Source of the DNA: Anaeromyxobacteraceae bacterium
GTDB lineage: Bacteria; Myxococcota; Myxococcia; Myxococcales; Anaeromyxobacteraceae
Direction: 5' to 3'
NCBI GenBank assembly: GCA_047602405.1
Contig: JASGHJ010000002.1
Coordinates: 3,552,001-3,616,000, forward strand
DNA: 64,000 nucleotides
The notes under the pieces are model-generated. The model searched no databases and was not told the origin of the DNA. It saw only the letters and a list, made by a program, of their open reading frames with translations. Of this stretch, positions 38,940-52,074 are shown in pieces (within the stretch, counting starts at the first letter, position 1; every line of letters begins with the position of its first letter). The translations under genes and the position numbers were made by a program.

Positions 38940-40499
38940 TCACACCCCGTACTTCTCGCGGAGCCGCCGCGAGGCCGCGACGGCCTGGGCGAGCTTCGCG
39001 GTGGCGAGCCGCGCGGAGGCGATGGGGTTGTCGGCGAAGGTGGCGAACCCGCAGTCGGGGTTGAGGAGCACGCGCTCCGGGCCGAGCACCCGGATGGCGC
39101 GCTCGGCACGCTCCACGATCACCTCGGCGGGCTCGACCTCCTCCTTCTTCTGGTTCACGACGCCCACGCCGACCCGCACCTCGCGCGGCAGCCCGGCGAG
39201 GACCTCGACGTCGCCCGCGCGCGGCGTCGCGAGCTCGAGGAAGAGCGTGCCCACCGGCGCGCGCGACAGGAGTCCGAGGAGCGGCCGGTAGTCGCCCGAG
39301 AGCGCGACCGACTCGTCGGGCGTCCAGTTGCCGCGGCACATGTGGAGCGCGAGCCGCTCCCGCGGGAAGCCGGCCGCGACCTCCGCCAGGAGCCCCTCCG
39401 CGAACGCGAGCTCGACGTCCGCGTCGCCCTTCGCGTCGAGCACGCCGCACATGAAGGTGCGGTTGCCGGTGACGCTGCCGCCGAAGACCACCTCGGAGAG
39501 GATGGGCTCGTCGAGCTGCACGAGGGCCGCGCCGCCGGCGAGGAGGTCCTGGATCTCCTCGCGGAGCACGCGGACGAGGTCCTTCGCGAGCGCCGCGCGG
39601 TCCGCGTAGAAGCGGTCGGAGATGCACTCCATCCACATGGTGCGCGCGAGGAGGTAGGGGCCGGGGAGCGCGACCTTCACCGGGCGGTCGGTCTCGGTCC
39701 GGACGAAGGCGAGCTCGTGGGCGGCGAGCGGGCGGGCGCGGCGGAGCGGGCCCATCACCGCCGGGTGGCGGACCTTCGCGGCGGGGACGTCGAGGCTCCT
39801 GAGCTCCCGCTCGAACTCGACCGGATCGTCGACGTAGGCGAGGAGGTCGGTGAGCGGGACGAGCTGGCAGTTCTCGAGCCGGGCGCCGACGAAGGAGGCG
39901 TAGTTGTCGCGGCGCTGCTCGCCGTCGGTGACGACGTCGACGCCGGCGTCGAGCTGGCCCTTCAGCGCGAGCCGGACGGCGTCGTCGGCGGACTCCTCGA
40001 AGGCGGGTTCGGGGAGCCTGTTCTCGAGGCGGGCGTGGAGGGCGTCGAGGAGCCAGCGCGGGCGGGGCCAGGAGCCGACGCCGAGGACGGACAGGGGACG
40101 GACGGGGGGGACGGAGCCGGAGAAGGGGACGGAGACGGAGGCGGAGACGGAGGCGGAGGCCGATCCGGATCCGACTCCGACTCCGACTCCGGATCCGACT
40201 CCGACTCCGATTCCGCCTCGGAGCCCTCCCTTCGCCACCAGGAACCTGTACCTCCCCTCCCCCCTGCTCTCCGAGACGAGCTCGTTCCCGGTCATCCGGC
40301 ACCACGCCGGGAGGTCCTCGCAGACCGACGACTCCGACGAGCGGATCTCGAGGAGCTGGCCCGGGTCGAGCGGGTCGATGTGCTGCCGGATGAGCAGGAG
40401 CAGTCCGCTCCCGCAGTCGAGCGTCCCGCCGTCGAAGCTGGCGGCGGGGCGAGCGGGGGCCTCGCCCCCGGCCAGCGGGTGCTTCGTCCCGGAGGTCAT
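38940..40499 (-). CDS. Fusion of a TusA/SirA-like domain and a cobalamin-independent methionine synthase II (MetE catalytic-like) domain
   Basis: FDGGTLDCGSG..DLPAWCRMTGN N-terminal domain; GSWPRP, TDGEQRR, QLDEP, HMCRGN, NPDCGF. Confidence 0.85.
   Translation of the reverse strand: MTSGTKHPLAGGEAPARPAASFDGGTLDCGSGLLLLIRQHIDPLDPGQLLEIRSSESSVCEDLPAWCRMTGNELVSESRGEGRYRFLVAKGGLRGGIGVGVGSGVGVGVGSGSASASVSASVSVPFSGSVPPVRPLSVLGVGSWPRPRWLLDALHARLENRLPEPAFEESADDAVRLALKGQLDAGVDVVTDGEQRRDNYASFVGARLENCQLVPLTDLLAYVDDPVEFERELRSLDVPAAKVRHPAVMGPLRRARPLAAHELAFVRTETDRPVKVALPGPYLLARTMWMECISDRFYADRAALAKDLVRVLREEIQDLLAGGAALVQLDEPILSEVVFGGSVTGNRTFMCGVLDAKGDADVELAFAEGLLAEVAAGFPRERLALHMCRGNWTPDESVALSGDYRPLLGLLSRAPVGTLFLELATPRAGDVEVLAGLPREVRVGVGVVNQKKEEVEPAEVIVERAERAIRVLGPERVLLNPDCGFATFADNPIASARLATAKLAQAVAASRRLREKYGV
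40127..40220. repeat. Hexamer repeat array encoding the interdomain linker (GVGVGSG..SASVSASV)
   Basis: (CGGAGR)n followed by (ACTCCG/GATCCG)n. Confidence 0.8.
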
Positions 40500-40511
40500 G
40501 TCGCGCGCGCC

Positions 40512-40871
40512 CTAGTACGAGATGCTGGTCGCGCCGGACGCGAGGAACTCGACCACCTTCGCGCCGCCCACGATCGTCGCCCCTTCGACGAGCTTCGCCT
40601 CGTCGAGCTTGCGCTTCTTGTAGCAGGGCGAGCAGACGAGGATCTTGCCGCCCGCCTTCGCGAAGTTGGTCATGAGCTCCACGAGCGGCGCGAAGCCCTC
40701 CTCGTGGATCTGCTCGGCGTAGCCCTTCTCGGCGAGGCGGGCGGCCTCGGTGGAGAGGAACACGACCGTCTCCTGCGCCGAGGCGACGGAGGCGTTCGCG
40801 ACCACGAAGCCGACGGTGGCCTTGTCGGGGTCGTTCTTCGCGTGGGTGATGGAGACGAGGATCTTGGCCAT
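40512..40871 (-). CDS. DsrE family protein
   Basis: DKATVGFVVA, VFLSTEA, VCSPC, IVGGA. Confidence 0.85.
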   Translation of the reverse strand: MAKILVSITHAKNDPDKATVGFVVANASVASAQETVVFLSTEAARLAEKGYAEQIHEEGFAPLVELMTNFAKAGGKILVCSPCYKKRKLDEAKLVEGATIVGGAKVVEFLASGATSISY

Positions 40872-40891
40872 GGCGACGTCCTTCCCGATGC

Positions 40892-41122
40892 TCAGGATTT
40901 CCTGCGGATGAAGTAGTGGGGTGGCTCCGCGCGGACGAGCGCGTTGCCGGTGAGGCGGCACCAGGCGGGGATGTCGTGGGGGGCGCCCGCGTCGCGGGTG
41001 GTGAGCTGGAAGACCTGCCCCGGCGCGAGGGCGCGCAGCTTCATCATGAGCTCGAAGACGAGCTCACCGCAGCCCATGTCGCCCGCGTCCCAGCTGCCCG
41101 CGGGCGTCGATTCCTCGGCCAT
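40892..41122 (-). CDS. TusA/SirA family sulfur carrier (CG-type motif)
   Basis: WDAGDMGCGELV, DAGAPHDIPAWCRLTGN, YFIRRK. Confidence 0.85.
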   Translation of the reverse strand: MAEESTPAGSWDAGDMGCGELVFELMMKLRALAPGQVFQLTTRDAGAPHDIPAWCRLTGNALVRAEPPHYFIRRKS

Positions 41123-41307
41123 CTGCCGGCTCCACCATCCGTGCGCGGGCGTTCACCCGCGCGTCCGACGACCCATCCCCGCTGCTCGTTGGGAGGCGCA
41201 CGGCCCCCCGGCCTAGCGGCCGGCGGGCTCGAGGGGGGATCGGGACTGGATGGTCTTTTCGGGCAGCACGGCGAGCATCGGCAGACAGCCTACACGAGGT
41301 CGCCGGG

Positions 41308-41517
41308 CTATTCCTTGACCACGAGCACGTGGATCGCCTTCACCACGAGCTTCACCGAGTCGCCCGGCTTCAGCGCGAGGTCCTCGGCGGACTCGACCGT
41401 CATGACCGACGCCATCCTCGCGGGCGCCGAGACGTCGAGCTTCACCTCGCACATGATGCTGCCCTTCTTCACCTCGGTGACCTTCGCCGTGAGCTGGTTG
41501 CGCGCGCCGTACTTCAT
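41308..41517 (-). CDS. Molbindin/TOBE (Mop) molybdate/tungstate-binding protein
   Basis: MKYGARNQL..VTEVKKG..SVMTVES..LKPGD..VKA; GGAGG RBS. Confidence 0.9.
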   Translation of the reverse strand: MKYGARNQLTAKVTEVKKGSIMCEVKLDVSAPARMASVMTVESAEDLALKPGDSVKLVVKAIHVLVVKE

Positions 41518-41563
41518 GGATGGCCTCCATTCGACAGCGGGGTGGATCCGCGAAGCATAAGCG

Positions 41564-42445
41564 TCATCCGTCGAGGATGCGCTCCTTTCCGGCGTAGACG
41601 TTCATCCCGGTCCCCCGGACGAAGGCCGCGAGCGTGAGGCCCGACTGGGTGGCGAGCTCCACCGCGAGCGACGTCGGCGCCGACACCGTGGCGACCACCG
41701 GGATCCGGGCCTTCGCGGCCTTCTGGACGATCTCGACGCCGGCGCGGGAGGAGACGGTGAGCATTCCCGGCTGCGGCACCGGCTGGCCCGCCCGCCGCGC
41801 CTCGAGCTGGGCGACGAGCAGCGCGCCCACCACCTTGTCGACCGCGTTGTGGCGGCCCACGTCCTCGTGGGCCGCGAGGAGCGCGCCGTCCCTCCCCCAC
41901 AGCGCCGCGACGTGCGCGCCGCCGGTGCGCTCGAAGACCGGCTGGTTCTCGCGCAGCCGGTCGATCCGCGCGGTGAGCTCGGAGGCCGCGACGGTGAAGC
42001 CCGGCTCCGGGCGCGGGAGATCGCAGAGGAGATCGGACACCGCCTGGCGTCCACAGACGCCGCACGCGGAGGAGGCCGCGAAGGGGCGGCGCGCGCCGTC
42101 GAGCCGGGAGAGGTCGAGCTTCGGCGAGGAGGACGGCGCCACCTCGACGAGGTTGCCGTAGCCCTCGTCGTCGGGCCGGCCGCAGTGGTAGACGGCGGCG
42201 ACGTCGTCGGCCGAGGCGATGATCCCCTCGGCGAACAGGAACCCGAGCGCGAGCTTCTCGTCGTCGCCCGGGGTCCGCATCAGCACGCCGACGGTCTCGC
42301 CTCCGACGCGGATCTCGAGCGGCTCCTCGACGGCCACGAGGTCGCGCGCGGCGCCCGGCGCGCGCCCCGGCGCGGCGCGGCCGCGGCGGAGCACGTCGAC
42401 CTCGGCGAGCCTCGCGCGCGGCGACGGCAGCCGCTCATCCGACAC
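41564..42445 (-). CDS. fdhD: Formate dehydrogenase accessory sulfurtransferase FdhD
   Basis: EEPLEI, MRTPGDD, SSACGVCG, TGGAH, EDVGRHNAVDK, SAPTSLA. Confidence 0.95.
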   Translation of the reverse strand: MSDERLPSPRARLAEVDVLRRGRAAPGRAPGAARDLVAVEEPLEIRVGGETVGVLMRTPGDDEKLALGFLFAEGIIASADDVAAVYHCGRPDDEGYGNLVEVAPSSSPKLDLSRLDGARRPFAASSACGVCGRQAVSDLLCDLPRPEPGFTVAASELTARIDRLRENQPVFERTGGAHVAALWGRDGALLAAHEDVGRHNAVDKVVGALLVAQLEARRAGQPVPQPGMLTVSSRAGVEIVQKAAKARIPVVATVSAPTSLAVELATQSGLTLAAFVRGTGMNVYAGKERILDG

Positions 42446-44429
42446 GGCGCGGACCTCCCGGGCCGGGCACGACGGCCCCGGAGTCCGGCCCGCCCGCGTC
42501 CGGCGTGCGCTTCACGGCGACCTGGTCGGTCACGACCTCGAACGCGCCGATCACGTGGCCGGCGGGGTCGCGCAGCGGCACCGCGGTGTAGAGCACGTGC
42601 AGGTCCAGCCCCTCGGGGTGGGCGTCGGTCTCGCTGTTGACCTCGCGGTCCTGGCGCATGGCCCGCGCGGCGGCGCAGCCGGCGGAGCGGCAGTCGCCCA
42701 TCCGGAACCCGTCGTAGCAGCGGGTCCCCACGAGCTCCGCCTGGGAGCGGCCGAGCAGCGTGGCCCCGGTCTGGTTCATGTAGCGGATGGTGAAGTCGGG
42801 CCCGATGATCATCGCCGGCGCCGGCATGACGTCCAGGTGGTGCACGAGCGTCTCGAGCGTGGCGTTCACGCCCTCGAGGGCCGCGCGGTACGCCCCCTGG
42901 AACGCCTCGGGCTTCGCGCGCTCGGAGAGCCGGCCCTCGACCGCGGCGTGGGCCAGGCGGTCCATCTCGGCGACGAGCCGGGTGAGCTCGCCCTTCGCGT
43001 CCTGGAAGCTGTGGGTGAGCTCGTCGTGCTCGCCGCGGGGCGCGACGTCCACCGAGAGCTCGCCCTTCGCGATGGCGTCCGCGCCGCGGGCGACGTCGTG
43101 CAGGTACGCGATGGTGCCGCGGAAGGCCTCGGCGAGCCGGCCAATCTCGTCCTTCGAGCGGAAGGTGACCTCCTGGCGGAGGTCGCCCTGGGAGATGCGC
43201 TCGGCCGCGAGCGCCATGTCCTCGAGCGGCGCGGCGAGCTTCCTCGCGCCGCCCCGCGCCGCCCAGATCGTCCCGAGGAGGAGCGCGAAGCCGATGGCCG
43301 CGACGAGGAGGAACGCGCCCGCGAGCGACGCCTGCATGCGGCGCAGCGCGCCGAGCGACTCCTCGTGGTCGAGCTCCGCCACGATCACCCAGTCCCAGGG
43401 CTGGAAGTCGATCGCCGCCGCGATGCGCTCGTGGGGCGGCCCCTTCTCGGCGGGCCGCGTGAACCGCACCTCCACCGTGCGATCGCGGGCGGCGATCGCC
43501 TTCTCGACGAGGTCCTTCACGTACGGCGTGCCCGAGGCGTCCCGCGCACCCCAGCCGTCGGTGCCGGCGACGACCCCGGCCGGCGGGATGAGGAACTTGC
43601 CGCGCTGGTTGCCGGTGCCGCCGAGGACGAACATCTCGCCGCTCGCGCCGAACCGGGAGTTCACCACGCCGCTCCGGATGCCCTCGAGCGCGTCCTGGCG
43701 GAGGCCCACGAACAGCATGCCGACCACCCGGCCGGTCGCGTCGCGCACCGGCTCGTAGCCGGAGAGGTGCCAGTTGTCGACCACGCGGGCGCGGCCGCGG
43801 TACGTCTCGCCGCGGAGCACGGTCGACACCACCGGGTTGGGCTCGCCGTCGGGGTCGACCGCGGGGATGTAGGTGGCGACGGCGCGGCCGCCCTCCCGCG
43901 GGTCGGGGACCGTGGTCGCGACGCGGAGCATGTCGCCCCGGTCGTTCATGCGCTGGAAGAGGGTCGACTCGGCGCCGACGAGCTCCTTCACGCGGTCGAC
44001 GAGCGGGCTCGGGCGGGCGAAGTCCTTGTTGACGGGGAGCGGCGTGCCGCCGAGGAGCACCCGGGGGAGCGAGACCTCGACGACCGAGCGGTCGAGCTGG
44101 TTCGTGGCCCGCCAGGTCACCTGCTCGGTGCGGGAGAACCCGAAGCCGCCGAGCTGGTCCACCTGGTCGTGCATGACGCGCAGGCTGCGGGGCACCTGAT
44201 CCCAGAGGCCCTGGTGCGTCGCCTCGCAGAGGGTGCGCACGTCGCGGGCCGCGCGCGCGACGCCGTCGCGGGCGAGCGCGCCCATCCCCTCCTCGACCAT
44301 CGACTCCATCCGGCCGCGCTGCGTCGCGAAGACCGCGAGCACCGCCGCCACGAGCAGCGCCGTGGGGGCGAGCGCCACGACCAGGATCTTCTGGCGGAGC
44401 GGCATGTCCTTCGCGAACTGTCTCGGCAC
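42435..44429 (-). CDS. Cache-HAMP-PAS membrane sensor (chemoreceptor-like) lacking an output domain
   Basis: TM, TLFQRMNDRGDMLRVATT..GRA..YEP Cache region, TM, HAMP (DEIGRLA), PAS; ends shortly after the PAS domain. Confidence 0.75.
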   Translation of the reverse strand: MPRQFAKDMPLRQKILVVALAPTALLVAAVLAVFATQRGRMESMVEEGMGALARDGVARAARDVRTLCEATHQGLWDQVPRSLRVMHDQVDQLGGFGFSRTEQVTWRATNQLDRSVVEVSLPRVLLGGTPLPVNKDFARPSPLVDRVKELVGAESTLFQRMNDRGDMLRVATTVPDPREGGRAVATYIPAVDPDGEPNPVVSTVLRGETYRGRARVVDNWHLSGYEPVRDATGRVVGMLFVGLRQDALEGIRSGVVNSRFGASGEMFVLGGTGNQRGKFLIPPAGVVAGTDGWGARDASGTPYVKDLVEKAIAARDRTVEVRFTRPAEKGPPHERIAAAIDFQPWDWVIVAELDHEESLGALRRMQASLAGAFLLVAAIGFALLLGTIWAARGGARKLAAPLEDMALAAERISQGDLRQEVTFRSKDEIGRLAEAFRGTIAYLHDVARGADAIAKGELSVDVAPRGEHDELTHSFQDAKGELTRLVAEMDRLAHAAVEGRLSERAKPEAFQGAYRAALEGVNATLETLVHHLDVMPAPAMIIGPDFTIRYMNQTGATLLGRSQAELVGTRCYDGFRMGDCRSAGCAAARAMRQDREVNSETDAHPEGLDLHVLYTAVPLRDPAGHVIGAFEVVTDQVAVKRTPDAGGPDSGAVVPGPGGPRRVG

Positions 44430-44511
44430 GGGGCGCACCTCCGGACACGCCCGGTATACCTCAGCGCTCGGGCCTTGAGCACCCCGGCCCTCCCCGGTGT
44501 AACCTCCGGCC

Positions 44512-46503
44512 GTGATCTCCGCTTCCCCCACCGCGACGCTCCGCCGGCGGCTGGACGTCGTGTGGGAGCGGTTCGTCGCGAGCGGGGAGATCGAGGGGGC
44601 GCGGCCGGAGATCGCCCGCTCCTGGCGCCGGGTGCGGGAGCTCGAGCTCGACGACGGCCTGCCCCGGGCGCCGTCGGTGGCGGCTCCGGAGCTCGCGCGC
44701 CGCACCGCGCTCGACGAGGTGCTGTGGGTCGCCCGCCCGGTCCTCGGCGAGGCCGCCGAGCGGCTCCGGCAGAAGGGCTCGCTCGTCGGCTGGGCGGATC
44801 CGGAGGGCTGCGTCCTGTGGCTCGACGGCGACCCCGACGCGCTCGACGCGGCGAGAGAGATCAACCTCGGGCCCGGCGGGACCTGGGGAGAGGCGATCGC
44901 GGGCACGAACGGGATCGGCACCGCCATCGCGGACCGCGCGCCGGTCGAGGTGGTCGCCTCCGAGCACCTCGTGCGCGCCTGGCAGCGCTGGCGCACCGCC
45001 GGGGCGCCGGTGCTCACGCCGTCGGTCGCCGGCCCGGTGGGCGTCGTGGTCGTCGCGGGCGGGTGGGACGCGCCGGAGCCGCAGGGCGCCCCGCTCGCCG
45101 CCGCGCTCGCCGCCGCGATCTCCGAGCGCCTCCGCACCCGGGCCGCCGTGCGCGACGCGCTGGTGCGGCACGCGCTCCGGGCCGCCCGCGACACCGGCGA
45201 CGCGCTCGTGGTGCTCGACGCGCGCGGGGCGGTGCTCCACCAGAACGAGGCCGCCCGCGAGGCCCTGCCGCTCGAGCGGGGCGAGACCCCGCGCGGCGTG
45301 CGCGAGCGGCTCGTCGCGGCGCTGTCGGGGCCGGGGCAGCCGGCCGACGAGCTCGTGCTCGACTGGCCCGCGGGGTCCGGCGAGGAGAAGCACCGCGTGC
45401 TCGCCTCGATCGAGGCGCTCGACGGCCGGCCGCTCGCCGCGTTCGTGCGCGTGCCCCGCCGCGCGAGCGGGGCCGCCGTCGCGCCGGCGCCCGCCGCCGG
45501 CGCCGCCCGCCAGCGCCCGGTCGCGCGCTACGCCTTCGGCAACCTCGCCGGCCGGTCCGACCGGCTGCGCGCCGCCATCACGCTCGCCGAGGGCGCGGCC
45601 CACAACGACCTCCCGGTCGTGCTGCAGGGCGAGTCCGGCACCGGCAAGGAGCTCTTCGCCCACGGCATCCACGCCGCGAGCGACCGCGCCGCGGCGCCGT
45701 TCGTGGCCGTGAACTGCGGGGCCATCCCCGCGCCGCTCGTCGAGGCGGAGCTCTTCGGCTACGAGCCCGGCACCTTCACCGGCGGCCAGAAGGAGGGCCG
45801 CGCCGGGAAGCTCGAGGAGGCGCACGGCGGCACGCTCTTCCTCGACGAGGTGACGGAGCTGCCCCTCCCCGCGCAGACCGCGCTCCTCCGCGTGCTGCAG
45901 GAGGGCGAGGTCACCCGCCTCGGCGGCAGCCGCCCGCGCCGGGTCGAGGTGCGCATCGTGGCCGCGACGAACCGCGACCTCGCCGGCGAGGTCGCCGCGG
46001 GCCGGTTCCGCCAGGACCTCTTCTTCCGGCTCTCGGTGCTCCACCTCGACGTGCCGCCGCTCCGCGAGCGCGCCGGCGACGTCTCGTTCCTCGCGACCGT
46101 CTTCCTCGACGAGGCGGCCCGCCGCGTCGGCCGCGGCCCGCTCAGCCTCTCGCCCGCCGCGCTCGAGAAGCTCGAGGCGCACGGCTGGCCCGGCAACGTC
46201 CGCGAGCTCAAGAACGCCGTCATGCGCGCCGCCGCCGTCGCGGCGAGCGAGGTGATCGGGCCGGACGACCTCCGGCTCGTGGACCTCAGGCCGTCGCGCC
46301 CGTCCGTGGCGGCCCCCGCGTCGCCGGCCTCCCCGCTGCCCGCCGACGGCCCCGCCGCGGACCCCGAGGGCGGCCCGGGCAAGGACGAGCTCGTCGCCGC
46401 GCTCGAGGCCTGCGGCTGGAACATCGCCCGCACCGCGACGACGCTCGGCGTGTCGCGGATGACGCTGTACCGGCGGCTCCGGCGGTTCGGGATCACGCGG
46501 TAG
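44512..46503 (+). CDS. Sigma54-dependent activator, GAF-PAS-AAA+-Fis (AcoR-like)
   Basis: SWRR, GTNGIGTA GAF; GESGTGKE, GTFTGG, WPGNVREL, LGVSRMTLYRRL. Confidence 0.92.
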   Translation: MISASPTATLRRRLDVVWERFVASGEIEGARPEIARSWRRVRELELDDGLPRAPSVAAPELARRTALDEVLWVARPVLGEAAERLRQKGSLVGWADPEGCVLWLDGDPDALDAAREINLGPGGTWGEAIAGTNGIGTAIADRAPVEVVASEHLVRAWQRWRTAGAPVLTPSVAGPVGVVVVAGGWDAPEPQGAPLAAALAAAISERLRTRAAVRDALVRHALRAARDTGDALVVLDARGAVLHQNEAAREALPLERGETPRGVRERLVAALSGPGQPADELVLDWPAGSGEEKHRVLASIEALDGRPLAAFVRVPRRASGAAVAPAPAAGAARQRPVARYAFGNLAGRSDRLRAAITLAEGAAHNDLPVVLQGESGTGKELFAHGIHAASDRAAAPFVAVNCGAIPAPLVEAELFGYEPGTFTGGQKEGRAGKLEEAHGGTLFLDEVTELPLPAQTALLRVLQEGEVTRLGGSRPRRVEVRIVAATNRDLAGEVAAGRFRQDLFFRLSVLHLDVPPLRERAGDVSFLATVFLDEAARRVGRGPLSLSPAALEKLEAHGWPGNVRELKNAVMRAAAVAASEVIGPDDLRLVDLRPSRPSVAAPASPASPLPADGPAADPEGGPGKDELVAALEACGWNIARTATTLGVSRMTLYRRLRRFGITR

Positions 46504-48978: not shown

Positions 48979-51900
48979 ATGACGGTCGGAAGGCGAAGCT
49001 GGTTCAAGAATCACGGCGGCGGGAGGCGCCGGGCTCGCGTTGACCGAGCTCGGGCTCAAGCCGGCCGAGGTGCAGGCCGCGACGAAGCGCTCGAAGCTCG
49101 TGGGGGTCCAGGAGTTCACGACCGCCTGCAACTTCTGCTCGTGCGGTTGCGGCATGGTCGCCCACGTGAAGGACGGCAAGCTCGTCAACCTCGAGGGCGA
49201 CCCCGACCACATCATCAACGAGGGCTCGCTCTGCTCGAAGGGCGCCGCGATGAAGGCGACCCACGAGAACCCGATGCGGCTCCAGAAGCCGCGCTACCGC
49301 GCGCCGGGCGCCACCTCCTGGACCGAGATCACCTGGGACGAGGCGTTCGAGAAGATCGCGAAGAAGATGAAGCAGGTCCGCGACACGAACTGGATCGCGA
49401 CCGAGAAGGACAAGGACGCGGACGGCAACGAGGTCGAGTACCCGGTGAACCGCACCGAGGCGATGGGCTTCCTCGGCGGCGCGCAGAACACCAACGAGGA
49501 GTGCTACCTCATCGCCAAGATGGGCCGGCTGCTGGGCACGCCGCTCATCGAGCACCAGGCTCGACTTTGACACAGCCCCACCGTCCCCAGTCTGGGGGCA
49601 TCGTTCGGCCGTGGCGCGATGACGAACCACTGGCTCGATCTGCAGCACTCGAAGGTCTTCCTGATCGCCGGATCCAACGCCGCCGAGAACCACGTGATGG
49701 CGATGAAGTGGGTCCAGAAGGCGCGCGCCAAGGGCGCGAAGATCATCCACGTCGATCCCCGCTTCACCCGCACGAGCGCGATGGCCGACGTCTACGCGCG
49801 CATCCGTCCGGGCACGGACATCGCCTACCTCGGCGCGATGATCTCGTACCTCATCGAGAAGAAGCTCTATGACGAGGCGTACGTCTCCGAGAACACCAAC
49901 GCGCTCTTCCTGACGAAGGACGAGTACAAGTTCGAGGACGGCCTCTTCTCCGGCTTCAACGGCGAGACGCACAAGTACGACAACGCGTCCTGGGGCTACG
50001 ACCTCGATCCGAAGACGCACCTGCCGAAGAAGGCCGCGTCGCTCGACGATCCGAAGTGCGTCCTCCAGCGCGTCCGGCAGCACTTCTCCCGCTACACGTT
50101 CGACACGGCGAGCGAGAATCTTCCGGCATCCCGGCCGACCAGATCAAGCTCATCGCCGACACGATGGCGGCGAACAAGCCGGGCACGATCATGTACGCGC
50201 TCGGCATGACCCAGCACACCACCGGCGTGCAGGGCATCCGCTGCTACCCGATCATCCAGCTGCTCCTCGGCAACATCGGCGTCGTCGGCGGCGGCGTGAA
50301 CGCGCTCCGCGGCGAGCCGAACGTGCAGGGCGCCTGCGACATGTCCGTGCTGTACGACTACTTCACGGGCTACGTCGCGGCTCCGAACCACGACCTGCCG
50401 ACGCTCGAGGCCTTCACGAAGAAGTACGGCACGTTCCGCGCGAAGTTCGTCGTGAACGCGCTCAAGGCCTGGTTCGGCGACGCGGCGACGCCCGAGAACG
50501 ACTTCATGTACGGGTCGCTGCTCAAGAAGAGCGGGAAGAAGAACTACTCGGTCTTCCGCATGCTCGAGACGGCGTACGAGGGGAAGATGAAGCTCCTCTA
50601 CGTCATGGGCCAGAACCCGATGGTCACGAACCCGAACCTGAAGCTGGTCGGGCAGTCGCTGGCCAAGCTCGAGATGCTGGTGGTCCAGGATCTCTGGGAG
50701 ACGGAGACCGCCGCGTTCTGGCAGGCCCCGGGCCTCGACCCGAAGGCCATCCAGACCGAGGTGATCGCGCTCCCGGCCGCCTACTTCATGGAGAAGGAAG
50801 GCACCATCTCCGGCTCCGGCCGCCTGGTGCAGTGGCGGTACGAGGCGGTGAAGCCGCCGGGAGAGGCGAAGAACGACCTCGAGATCATCGACACGCTCTT
50901 CAAGAAGGTCCGGGCCCTCTACCAGGACTCGACCGACCCGAAGGACGCGGTGATCAAGCAGGCCGTGTGGGCCTACTCCGAGAAGTCCCGCGCCGAGGAC
51001 GTGCTCCGCGAGATCAGCGGGCGCGTCTGGAAGGAGGTCACCCTCCCCGACGGCAAGGTGCTCAAGGCCGGCGACATGATCGGCGGCATCGGCCAGCTCC
51101 AGGGCGACGGCTCGACCTCGTCGGGCTCCTGGATCTACGCCGGCATCTTCGGCGGCGGGAAGAACCTCTCGAAGCGCCGTGACAACAAGACCGACCCGTC
51201 GAAGCTGGGCATCTACCCCGGCTTCGCCTGGACCTGGCCGGGCAACATGCACGTCCTCTACAACCGCGCGTCCTGCGGCGTGGACGGCAAGCCGCGCCCC
51301 GGCGTCATCCCGGTCGTGTGGTGGGACGAGAAGGACAAGAAGTGGAAGGGCCATGACACGCCCGACGTGCCGGTGCCCACCGACGGCCCCGACACCGAGA
51401 ACGGCCAGCGCCCGTTCCGCATGACCGCGGAGGCGGTCGGCCGGCTCTTCGCCGCGCCGTACAAGCACCCGGACATGAAGCTCCTCAAGGAGAAGAAGAA
51501 GGAGCTGCCCCGCGACTCGTCGAGCGTCCTCGGCGACGGCCCGCTGCCGGAGTTCTACGAGCCGGTGGAGAGCCCCTGCGAGAACGTGCTGCACCCGAAG
51601 GTCGCGTCCAACCCGGTGCTGAAGTACCCGCGCATCCCGGCGCTGCAGCCCATCGGCAAGAAGAGCGACTTCCCCTACGTGCTCTCGACGGCCTCGATGA
51701 CCGAGCACTGGTGCGCGGGCTCCACGACGCGCAACGTGCCCTGGCTCAACGAGCTCGCGCCCGAGCCGTGGGTGGAGCTGCCCGAGAAGCTCGCCCAGGA
51801 GAAGCAGATCAAGACGGGCGACAAGGTGAAGGTGTGGTCGGCGCGCGGCGAGGTGACGGTGAAGGCCCGCGTGACGAAGCGCATGGAGGTGCTGCGGATC

Positions 51901-52074
51901 CACGGCAAGGAGCAGGTCGTCGTGTGGATGCCCTACAACTGGGGCTTCAAGGGCCTGTCGACGGGCCCGAGCACGAACCACCTGACCATCGACGTGGGTG
52001 ATCCCAACACCTGGTGCCAGGAGACGAAGGCGTGCCTGGTCAACCTCGCCAAGGCTGAAGACCGCATCGCCTAG
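48979..52074 (+). CDS. fdnG: Selenocysteine-containing formate dehydrogenase alpha subunit (Mo/W-bisPGD, Tat-exported); insertions at ~49010 (+1) and ~50118 (+2)
   Basis: AGGAGG RBS; corrected Tat signal GRRSWFKITAAG; CNFCSCGC..GSLCSKG; HQARL-TGA(49568-49570)-HSPTV..FGRGAMTNHW; RGEPNVQG; TEHW. Confidence 0.92.
49571..49602 (+). promoter_or_regulatory. Putative SECIS hairpin
   Basis: GTCCCC-AGTCT-GGGGGC stem-loop ~12 nt after the in-frame TGA. Confidence 0.7.

Follow-up and report, generated by a model that had tools for sequence, protein, structure and literature searches.

What would a pair of TusA- and DsrE-type carriers do for an enzyme with the fold of a methionine synthase? The question is raised by a 64,000-nucleotide (nt) stretch of the genome of Anaeromyxobacteraceae bacterium (assembly GCA_047602405.1, JASGHJ010000002.1:3,552,001-3,616,000), referred to here as the window, whose positions are used below except where a locus number precedes them. 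On its minus strand, three closely spaced genes encode a free TusA-like carrier (TusA1), a DsrE-family protein and a second TusA-like domain (TusA2) fused in frame to a single MetE-like barrel. We describe here that this triad is part of a conserved module, and we suggest, tentatively and at somewhat below an even chance, that it is an accessory system that scavenges selenium from a pyramidal oxyanion, either methylseleninate or selenite, and relays it to SelD.

All gene calls were checked against Pfam and NCBIfam cut-offs. The original prediction, which was made from the DNA alone, described the three genes as a relay leading to a zinc enzyme, and their coordinates, strand and Pfam matches were confirmed, as were the motifs VCSPC, GCGE, DCGSG, HMC, E422 and DCG in the window proteins (Table 1). 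The genes of the locus have third-codon-position GC contents of 0.94 to 0.99, as real genes would show, and the gaps within the triad are only 20 and 12 nt. No N-terminal MetE domain was reported by Pfam in the fusion protein. The TusA domains reach the Pfam superfamily level, with scores of 26 to 31 bits versus a cut-off of 78 for the NCBIfam TusA equivalog.

Recurrence of the fusion and the triad in other genomes had been set beforehand as a test. Among the 600 pattern matches listed for GTDB contigs, at least 585 were relatives, the best 80 of which were kept as loci; the best 120 protein matches listed share 62 to 100% identity over more than 90% of the query. According to their record titles, the 80 loci belong to Anaeromyxobacteraceae, Planctomycetota, Burkholderiales, Rokubacteria/Methylomirabilota, Binatia and Actinomycetota; the module is also carried on Paracoccus plasmids. 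A TusA domain is fused in frame to the barrel in 79 of them and DsrE is encoded in 75, with the barrel starting no more than about 540 bases from the end of the locus in four of the five misses; a free TusA is present in 68. The recurrence test set for the fusion and the triad is therefore passed. In a second clade, with 42 to 50% identity, the parts are split, so that a free barrel and a TusA::OsmC fusion lie within one operon. Occurrence is patchy, with carriers making up 14 of the 71 genomes of the window's family, 16/301 at the Burkholderiaceae level, 43/281 in Planctomycetota and 1/115 at the level of Acidimicrobiia. Two unpublished genomes, G019 (locus L025) and G050 (locus L079), are included in the counts of 80 loci and of 50 carrier genomes used below, and G019 was also counted at the Burkholderiaceae level, for PtxD/PhnJ and among the binding proteins; no conclusion hangs on these two alone. 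Two contigs titled Bifidobacterium (L043 and L078) have neighboring genes in common with L027, L028 and L039 of the Polynucleobacter/Burkholderiales group and are probably mis-binned. Our search of the open-access literature found no published account of the module, in line with the earlier view that it was undescribed, although subscription papers or supplements, such as tables of selenoprotein families, may hold one.

Residues were counted in 151 partly redundant loci, which are best matches above identity thresholds of 40 to 50%. As had been noted for the window, a CG replaces the CP of TusA proteins in both domains, and this is invariant among the aligned loci (138/138 for C18 of TusA1 and 149/149 for C29 of TusA2). 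The second cysteines are C55 (136/139) and C67 (141/149), and those of DsrE are C80 (149/149) and C83 (148/149). The second cysteine in PAWC, which the original prediction had taken for an unusual trait, was rejected as a special feature, as it aligns with the second cysteine of E. coli TusA. Some free TusA proteins of Planctomycetota carry an N-terminal extension with pairs of CxxC motifs, possibly a metal-binding domain (L055:6593-7222).

The barrel is closest, both by sequence and by fold, to the solved structure of MesD (Protein Data Bank [PDB] entry 3RPD), with which it shares about 22% identity, and it scores below every NCBIfam cut-off (at best 150.5 bits versus 406 for PRK04326 and 103.7 versus 392 for PRK09121). 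Core methionine synthases are defined by four zinc and three homocysteine-binding residues (Price et al. 2021, PMC7857596). All seven residues of working core synthases are retained in the barrel, namely, the predicted zinc residues H386 (148/148 loci), C388 (148/148), E422 (147/147) and C483 (147/149) and, as matched by alignment to 3RPD, the homocysteine-pocket residues S143, E194 and D330 (149/149 each). Two features that went unremarked in the original prediction were added to this set: an extra cysteine, Cys351, in an invariant FMC position discussed below and the invariant R286 (149/149). Pfam, the predicted structure and the fold match agree on a single catalytic barrel without an N-terminal folate domain. 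The AlphaFold model has a mean predicted local distance difference test (pLDDT) score of 74, which falls below 50 around Cys351, so that the distance of this residue to the zinc site is not readable, and it also weakly matches the UroD-like fold. MetH was matched in all 50 carrier genomes, in 44 of them over the cut-off, and is also encoded in the window's genome, where the barrel is the sole MetE-like sequence found. In comparison, MetH accompanies MesD in 75% of cases (PMC7857596). Because MetH is present in every one of the 50 carriers, the barrel does not appear to be a stand-in methionine synthase. In five genomes, neither MesX (DUF1852) nor the Wood-Ljungdahl corrinoid protein CdhD was found over the cut-off, although the positive control for MesX was also silent; ComA was likewise found in none of the five, with a control that was positive in three.

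Position 351 bears on the chemistry of the enzyme. Among 148 loci, it is occupied by cysteine in 143 and by an in-frame UGA codon, beyond which the frame runs on, in 5; the latter are 5 of the 20 split-type loci and belong to two lineages. SelA is encoded in all five genomes with a UGA-bearing barrel, and lineage-specific hairpins, no more than suggestive of a selenocysteine insertion sequence (SECIS) since the cysteine versions fold as well, lie 12 to 17 nt downstream of the UGA. The UGA likely encodes selenocysteine in these relatives. A cysteine that can be exchanged for selenocysteine is usually catalytic, and Cys351 is likely to be so too; given this exchange, the barrel probably performs redox or nucleophilic chemistry unlike that of MetE. 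A third UGA lineage likely exists in Tissierellia, judging from protein ends: in a cluster of 23 proteins, the 220-amino-acid (aa) members, one of them from Tissierellia, stop right before the equivalent of Cys351, and the 395-aa members have W. The short forms of this type (P0392 and P0399, 220 aa, versus P0264 and P0394, 395 aa) are annotated as truncated hypothetical proteins. Passages of a 2026 review that covers over 110 families of prokaryotic selenoproteins (PMC13188914) did not reveal a MetE-fold family with such a Cys/Sec exchange.

A connection to selenium is also apparent from gene co-occurrence. In the 281 Planctomycetota genomes, SelD is encoded by 40 of the 43 carriers versus 163 of the 238 noncarriers (odds ratio, 6.1; p=0.0007, with kin not independent), and within the fused clade alone by 16 of 17 (p=0.048); the three carriers without SelD all have SelA. 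At the Burkholderiaceae level (301 genomes), SelD is present in 16/16 carriers versus 245/285 others (p=0.14). Among the 50 carriers from the best 80 loci, SelA was matched in 41 and SelD in 6 more, with SelD untested in 3. The window's genome itself encodes SelA, SelB, SelD and tRNA-Sec. The guess in the original prediction that selenium might be involved is hence retained on the grounds of the SelD enrichment and the UGA at Cys351, and the neighboring formate dehydrogenase on which it had been based is dropped as an argument. Of the 101 loci examined for neighbors, only L003 has a gene adjoining the module for a binding protein of TIGR04553, named "putative selenate"; elsewhere in the window's genome, a protein 74% identical to a TIGR04553 member is encoded.

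In part of its range, the module comes with an importer. A PhnD/PhnE/PhnC-type ATP-binding cassette (ABC) system is present in 23 of the 80 loci (Burkholderiales and Rokubacteria/Methylomirabilota), either between dsrE and the fusion gene or directly upstream, and its binding protein matches HtxB, the closest PDB relative, with an E value of 1e-82 compared with about 1e-20 for PtxB or PhnD. HtxB picks hypophosphite, which has two oxygens, via W52, N128, F158 and a wall formed by R178 and D206 (PMC5700983, PMC6629693), with N128 and F158 abolishing the site for a third oxygen, and is described as binding neither phosphate nor methylphosphonate, the analogues with four substituents (PMC5700983). 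W52, R178 and D206 are kept in 44 of 47 aligned binding proteins, but S and H stand at positions 128 and 158; the remaining three are two true HtxB proteins and one outgroup. Both exchanges are found in all triad-linked rows, which have seven of the nine examined pocket positions in common with HtxB. In PtxB, S and H at these positions bind the third oxygen (PMC5700983, PMC6629693). The linked binding proteins agree with the description, rather than with an alignment of named members, of a "hybrid" class that Bisson et al. (PMC5700983) left untested. Judged from its residues, the pocket would suit a small pyramidal oxyanion with a hydrogen or lone pair towards the wall, and hypophosphite, phosphite, selenite, sulfite, methylseleninate and methanesulfinate are candidate ligands on this view.

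Likely uptake genes of different kinds are found in the remaining carriers. In some, a transglutaminase-like protein with an export signature occurs together with a porin-like gene, the transglutaminase being found in 16 of 101 and 12 of a further 44 loci; in Planctomycetota, the two genes lie beside the module at, e.g., L136:3866-5008 and L138:11171-12577. Further candidates, located inside the operon at L225:3717-4256, L022:4844-6913 and L081:9859-11943, are a small CxxC membrane protein and an exported, C-terminally anchored protein of about 500 aa with one invariant cysteine; neither has a Pfam family, and for the exported one the ESM Atlas gave only subthreshold leads. Binding-protein relatives also occur without a triad: at L153:14031-20991 and L179:11-6873 they lie beside radical-SAM and TIGR04282/DUF2064 glycosyltransferase genes, and at L165:2200-5563 a stand-alone hybrid importer lies shortly 3' of a gene for the selenium-binding protein SBP56. 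The hybrid binding protein was detected in 2 of 401 genomes of a phylum-wide sample, too small a number to build on.

The history of the importer bears on its substrate. Ciceribacter selenitireducens has a plasmid-encoded binding protein that shares 77% identity with the triad-linked one and lies behind a PhyH-family dioxygenase. The operon of WP_059414254, which Bisson et al. (PMC5700983) list as an HtxB, contains ptxD and, ahead of WP_059414254, a 286-aa gene whose product is 46 to 48% identical to this dioxygenase. We collected 82 binding-protein loci, 80 metagenomic and 2 genomic, as best matches to the Ciceribacter protein; these are partly redundant. A DsrE match was present in 30 of them, the barrel in 18, the dioxygenase in 6 and none of these in 45, some of which are short contigs. 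In all six dioxygenase loci (L151, L156 and L158 to L161), a decayed 3' fragment of dsrE lies between the dioxygenase and the binding protein (E values of 1e-16 to 3e-4); at L151:18770-22593, L160:4803-8551 and L161:4776-8644 the array runs from the dioxygenase through the decayed dsrE and the hybrid binding protein to PhnE and PhnC. The dioxygenase-linked binding proteins form one lineage that nests among the triad-linked ones in the tree. The decayed dsrE and this nested position mark a capture event, in which an HtxA-like gene acquired the importer of a triad operon. The captured importer can likely carry the substrate of the dioxygenase, which does not by itself reveal that of the triad. 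An origin of HtxB itself inside the triad-linked clade can only be suggested, since the tree has long-branch warnings on the HtxB position. In a crude scan with a Pho-box consensus (row L033 was mis-windowed), sites with up to three mismatches precede five of the six dioxygenase operons, while at up to two mismatches there are none at 121 triad starts and 1 at 32 operon starts, against a background of 16 in 2,680 windows. The presence of such sites at the dioxygenase operons and their near absence from the triads suggest that recruitment gave the importer a different task.

In light of these data, we tentatively favor the following scheme for the module. A pyramidal selenium oxyanion, likely methylseleninate and otherwise selenite, would be imported, as the pocket and the operon structure imply, and would be reduced by the thiols of the DsrE CxxC motif or the OsmC domain to give an adduct on Cys351 of the type Cys351-S-Se-R. 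Where R is methyl, the methyl group may be passed to homocysteine bound at the predicted zinc site; this step is suggested by the intact pocket and is chemically the weakest. The freed selenium would then move to the tethered TusA, on to the cysteines of the free TusA and DsrE and finally to SelD, as judged from what is known of these families. We regard the version with methyl transfer as doubtful when taken alone; the rest of our modest confidence goes to a version in which the zinc site merely releases selenide from the Cys-S-Se adduct. Equally doubtful is the pathway as a whole, i.e., a high-affinity methylseleninate/selenite importer, a Cys/Sec MetE-fold demethylase that would store the methyl group as methionine and a TusA-DsrE relay to SelD, with HtxB arising from the importer family after capture by HtxA. 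The selenium proposal draws on the SelD enrichment, the UGA at Cys351, the import genes, the scarcity of Pho-box sites, the presence of MetH in 50/50 carriers and several precedents: methyl-selenide demethylation by SdmABC and induction of TusAD under selenium starvation in methanococci (PMC11097638), the tie of the SirA-DsrE protein YedF to SelD (PMC5322559) and the release of selenide from zinc-bound RSSe- in model chemistry (PMC12811648).

Several points weigh against this proposal. That an enzyme contains selenocysteine points to chemistry of a redox or nucleophilic kind and not to selenium as the substrate, and a thiolate normally attacks the selenium, not the methyl carbon, of a methyl-selenenylsulfide. 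SelD is common to begin with (baselines of 72% and 87%), the Burkholderiaceae-level test fell short of significance, and the enrichment could stem from kinship or lifestyle. Genes of the sel group are rarely adjacent; they were seen at 3 of 101 loci (selA/selB/selC at L081, selC at L058 and selD at L065), and selA/B/C/D at none of 44 further, partly overlapping loci. Beside the HtxA-like dioxygenase, at least, the importer clade likely carries a P-H compound. Neither the importer nor any of the other likely uptake genes lies at the window's own locus, and no hybrid binding protein is encoded in its genome (best match, 26%). Moreover, metB-like, metX and metW neighbors recur and fit sulfur equally well.

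These last genes are part of the case for a sulfur analogue of the proposed pathway, in which sulfur, and perhaps a methyl group, would be salvaged from sulfite, methanesulfinate or thiosulfate-type species via persulfides of TusA and DsrE into the homocysteine/methionine pool. In Binatia, the metB-like genes are found close to the module (with metX at five loci and metW at four), as they are in Anaeromyxobacteraceae and at one Planctomycetota locus; in addition, there are cysteine-desulfurase-like genes at L051, L081 and L129, an aminotransferase class V gene at L213 and TauD upstream at L223. Sulfite and sulfinates are pyramidal like their selenium counterparts, the homocysteine pocket is intact, and homologues of TusA and DsrE shift thiosulfate between cysteines (PMC4175335). 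Even so, we consider this reading rather unlikely, as it leaves the SelD enrichment unexplained and the clustered neighbors include no conserved sulfur-starvation regulator or sulfonate genes. Chemistry counts against it as well, since sulfinates withstand reduction by thiols and seleninates do not. The importer opens a further route, an oxygen-independent oxidation of hypophosphite or phosphite, in which the P-H compound would attack a disulfide or selenenylsulfide formed with Cys351, the zinc site would hydrolyze the adduct, and TusA, DsrE or OsmC would reoxidize the enzyme. The linked binding protein is far nearer to HtxB than to PtxB or PhnD, the importer stands behind an HtxA-like dioxygenase in 6 of the 82 loci and on the Ciceribacter plasmid, which could be a like-for-like replacement, and a 2026 preprint (10.64898/2026.03.11.711166) states that no anaerobic pathway for hypophosphite oxidation is known. 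This explanation is rated lower, as unlikely, because of the pocket residues, the missing PtxD and the missing Pho-box-like sites: the 36 carrier genomes searched yielded a single 39% match but no orthologue for PtxD, and PhnJ in only 6, and the Pho-box-like sites precede the dioxygenase operons and hardly any triad. It would also leave the SelD enrichment and the homocysteine pocket unexplained, and the importer is found in just 23 of 80 loci.

The barrel could also represent a fifth family of core methionine synthases, with a methyl donor that has nothing to do with selenium and is brought on the carrier cysteines. Its seven defining residues, MesD as the nearest solved structure, the adjacent met genes in some clades and the lack of a second MetE-like match in the window's genome would fit this view. 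We nonetheless find it quite unlikely, given the importers and the Cys/Sec exchange at position 351, which it does not explain, the scores under every NCBIfam cut-off, the results for MesX (with its silent control) and CdhD in five genomes, and MetH in all 50 carriers compared with 75% for MesD (PMC7857596). Handling of an organometal or organometalloid, such as a methylarsenical or organomercurial, is very unlikely. In this scenario, the soft metal(loid) would sit on Cys/Sec351 and on the two-cysteine carriers, and the methyl group would pass to homocysteine. The membrane neighbor with CxxC in a hydrophobic stretch, which has no family match, presumably resembles MerT-type transporters, and the stand-alone binding-protein relatives adjoin the radical-SAM and glycosyltransferase genes mentioned above. 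Arsenite methyltransferase is moreover listed as a selenoprotein (PMC13188914). Against this stand the reported failure of HtxB to bind four-substituent analogues (PMC5700983), the high-affinity import, which speaks against detoxification, and the lack of ars or mer genes among the conserved neighbors. Hardly credible, finally, is a supply of sulfur for the maturation of Mo/W cofactor or formate dehydrogenase, a link drawn in the original prediction from the genes upstream. The presence of fdhD and a molbindin gene directly upstream on the same strand was confirmed, as was that of a formate dehydrogenase with an in-frame UGA nearby, 6.6 kb from fdhD. Across the best 80 loci, however, fdhD is near the module in only one, the closest relative, and mop in two; in a further 44 loci, fdhD was found in none and mop in two, and in the window 185 nt separate mop from the first tusA. 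At L007 and L266, mop comes after the fusion gene. As neither fdhD nor mop nor moa/moe genes are consistently linked to the module in these loci, the Mo/W connection was rejected, while the other part of that interpretation, a relay of cysteine carriers to a zinc thiol-alkyl enzyme, fits the residues.

Table 1. Features of the module and its immediate neighbors in the window
Feature	Position	Strand	Remarks
fdhD	41564-42445	-	TIGR00129 and Pfam FdhD over cut-off; local neighbor, not a conserved part of the module
mop (molbindin)	41308-41517	-	TIGR00638 and Pfam TOBE over cut-off; local neighbor, not a conserved part of the module
Free TusA-like carrier TusA1, 76 aa	40892-41122	-	Pfam TusA 36.9 bits (cut-off 28.6); Cys18-Gly replaces Cys-Pro; second Cys55
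DsrE-family protein, 119 aa	40512-40871	-	Pfam DsrE over cut-off; CSPC motif (Cys80, Cys83)
TusA::MetE-barrel fusion, 519 aa	38940-40499	-	Pfam TusA and Meth_synt_2 over cut-off
Fusion, N-terminal TusA-like domain TusA2	40224-40499	-	Pfam TusA, residues 34-90; Cys29-Gly, Cys67
Fusion, low-complexity flexible linker	40110-40223	-	Gly/Val/Ser-rich here, Pro-rich in relatives; pLDDT <50 at residues 95-123
Fusion, single-barrel MetE-like domain	38940-40109	-	Pfam Meth_synt_2; predicted Zn ligands H386, C388, E422, C483
Cys351 codon (FMC motif), family-specific	39447-39449	-	TGC here; in-frame UGA in some relatives

Some features of the surroundings are of note in their own right. The formate dehydrogenase alpha-like gene (positions 49040-52074, plus strand), which has its in-frame UGA at codon 177, contains a frameshift near 50,080 that is either a true lesion or an assembly error. 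An open reading frame for a Cache-HAMP-PAS sensor (positions 42435-45194, minus strand), in which no output domain was found, overlaps the start of fdhD by 11 nt; it ends identically in the closest relative, L001, which rules out misassembly as the cause of the truncation. A sigma-70 scan gave no promoter-like site, the one terminator was at chance level, and Rfam returned no match in the window.

Two papers (PMC9312934; PMC11097638) state that no transporter dedicated to selenium, or of high affinity for it, is known. The linked importer is a concrete candidate for one, with a purifiable binding protein (such as that at L040:4498-5385, from Duganella alba) and cultured, non-pathogenic hosts, among them Duganella, Massilia, Paracoccus ferrooxidans and Anaeromyxobacter oryzae as carriers of the module. 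A MetE-fold Cys/Sec enzyme would add a selenoprotein family and bring new chemistry to the fold; if phosphorus is the substrate, the module would be the first oxygen-independent route of hypophosphite oxidation.

Several known systems resemble parts of the module. The barrel is similar to MesA to MesD and especially to MesD, which likewise consists of a single barrel with the same zinc and homocysteine-binding residues (PMC7857596), but it differs in the Cys/Sec351 loop, R286, the tethered or adjacent TusA, the DsrE partner, the low scores and identity and the constant company of MetH, with MesX and CdhD not found in five genomes. The epoxyalkane:coenzyme M transferase XecA/EtnE is a single-barrel zinc thiol alkyltransferase, as predicted for the barrel, and coenzyme M biosynthesis, including ComA, is expected alongside it; the module differs from it in the retained homocysteine pocket and in the lack of ComA in the five genomes. 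YedE/YedF combine SirA/TusA-like and DsrE-like domains with a CxxC motif, a membrane transporter and co-occurrence with SelD (Lin et al. 2015, PMC5322559). YedF is, however, a single fused protein with CPxP and CGxC and no MetE barrel, whereas the triad consists of separate genes with CG and CSPC; no full-length YedF (TIGR03527) was found in the 50 carriers or the window's genome, only matches to its DsrE part, and the triad proteins do not figure among the TIGR03527 matches of the window's genome; as there is no baseline for the absence of YedF, it was not used as evidence. In the DsrE3A-TusA relay of Metallosphaera, a dsrE-tusA cluster also moves chalcogen species between cysteines, but it serves a heterodisulfide-reductase-like complex in dissimilatory sulfur oxidation (PMC4175335), genes for which are not conserved here, and the TusA motif of the module is CG. 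SdmABC of methanococci comes close to the proposed role, in that selenium is released from a methylated compound by methyltransferase action when selenium is scarce, with enzymes annotated as UroD-like; it relies on a corrinoid protein and coenzyme M (PMC11097638), and no corrinoid partner is seen among the conserved neighbors of the module. The linked importer resembles that of HtxABCDE (PMC5700983, PMC6629693) in most of its pocket but differs in S and H at positions 128 and 158 and has the triad in place of HtxA as the enzyme partner, no PtxD and no Pho-box-like site. Taken together, the module resembles a MetE-fold zinc thiol alkyltransferase joined to a TusA/DsrE relay, outside MesA to MesD, XecA, YedF and HtxABCDE.

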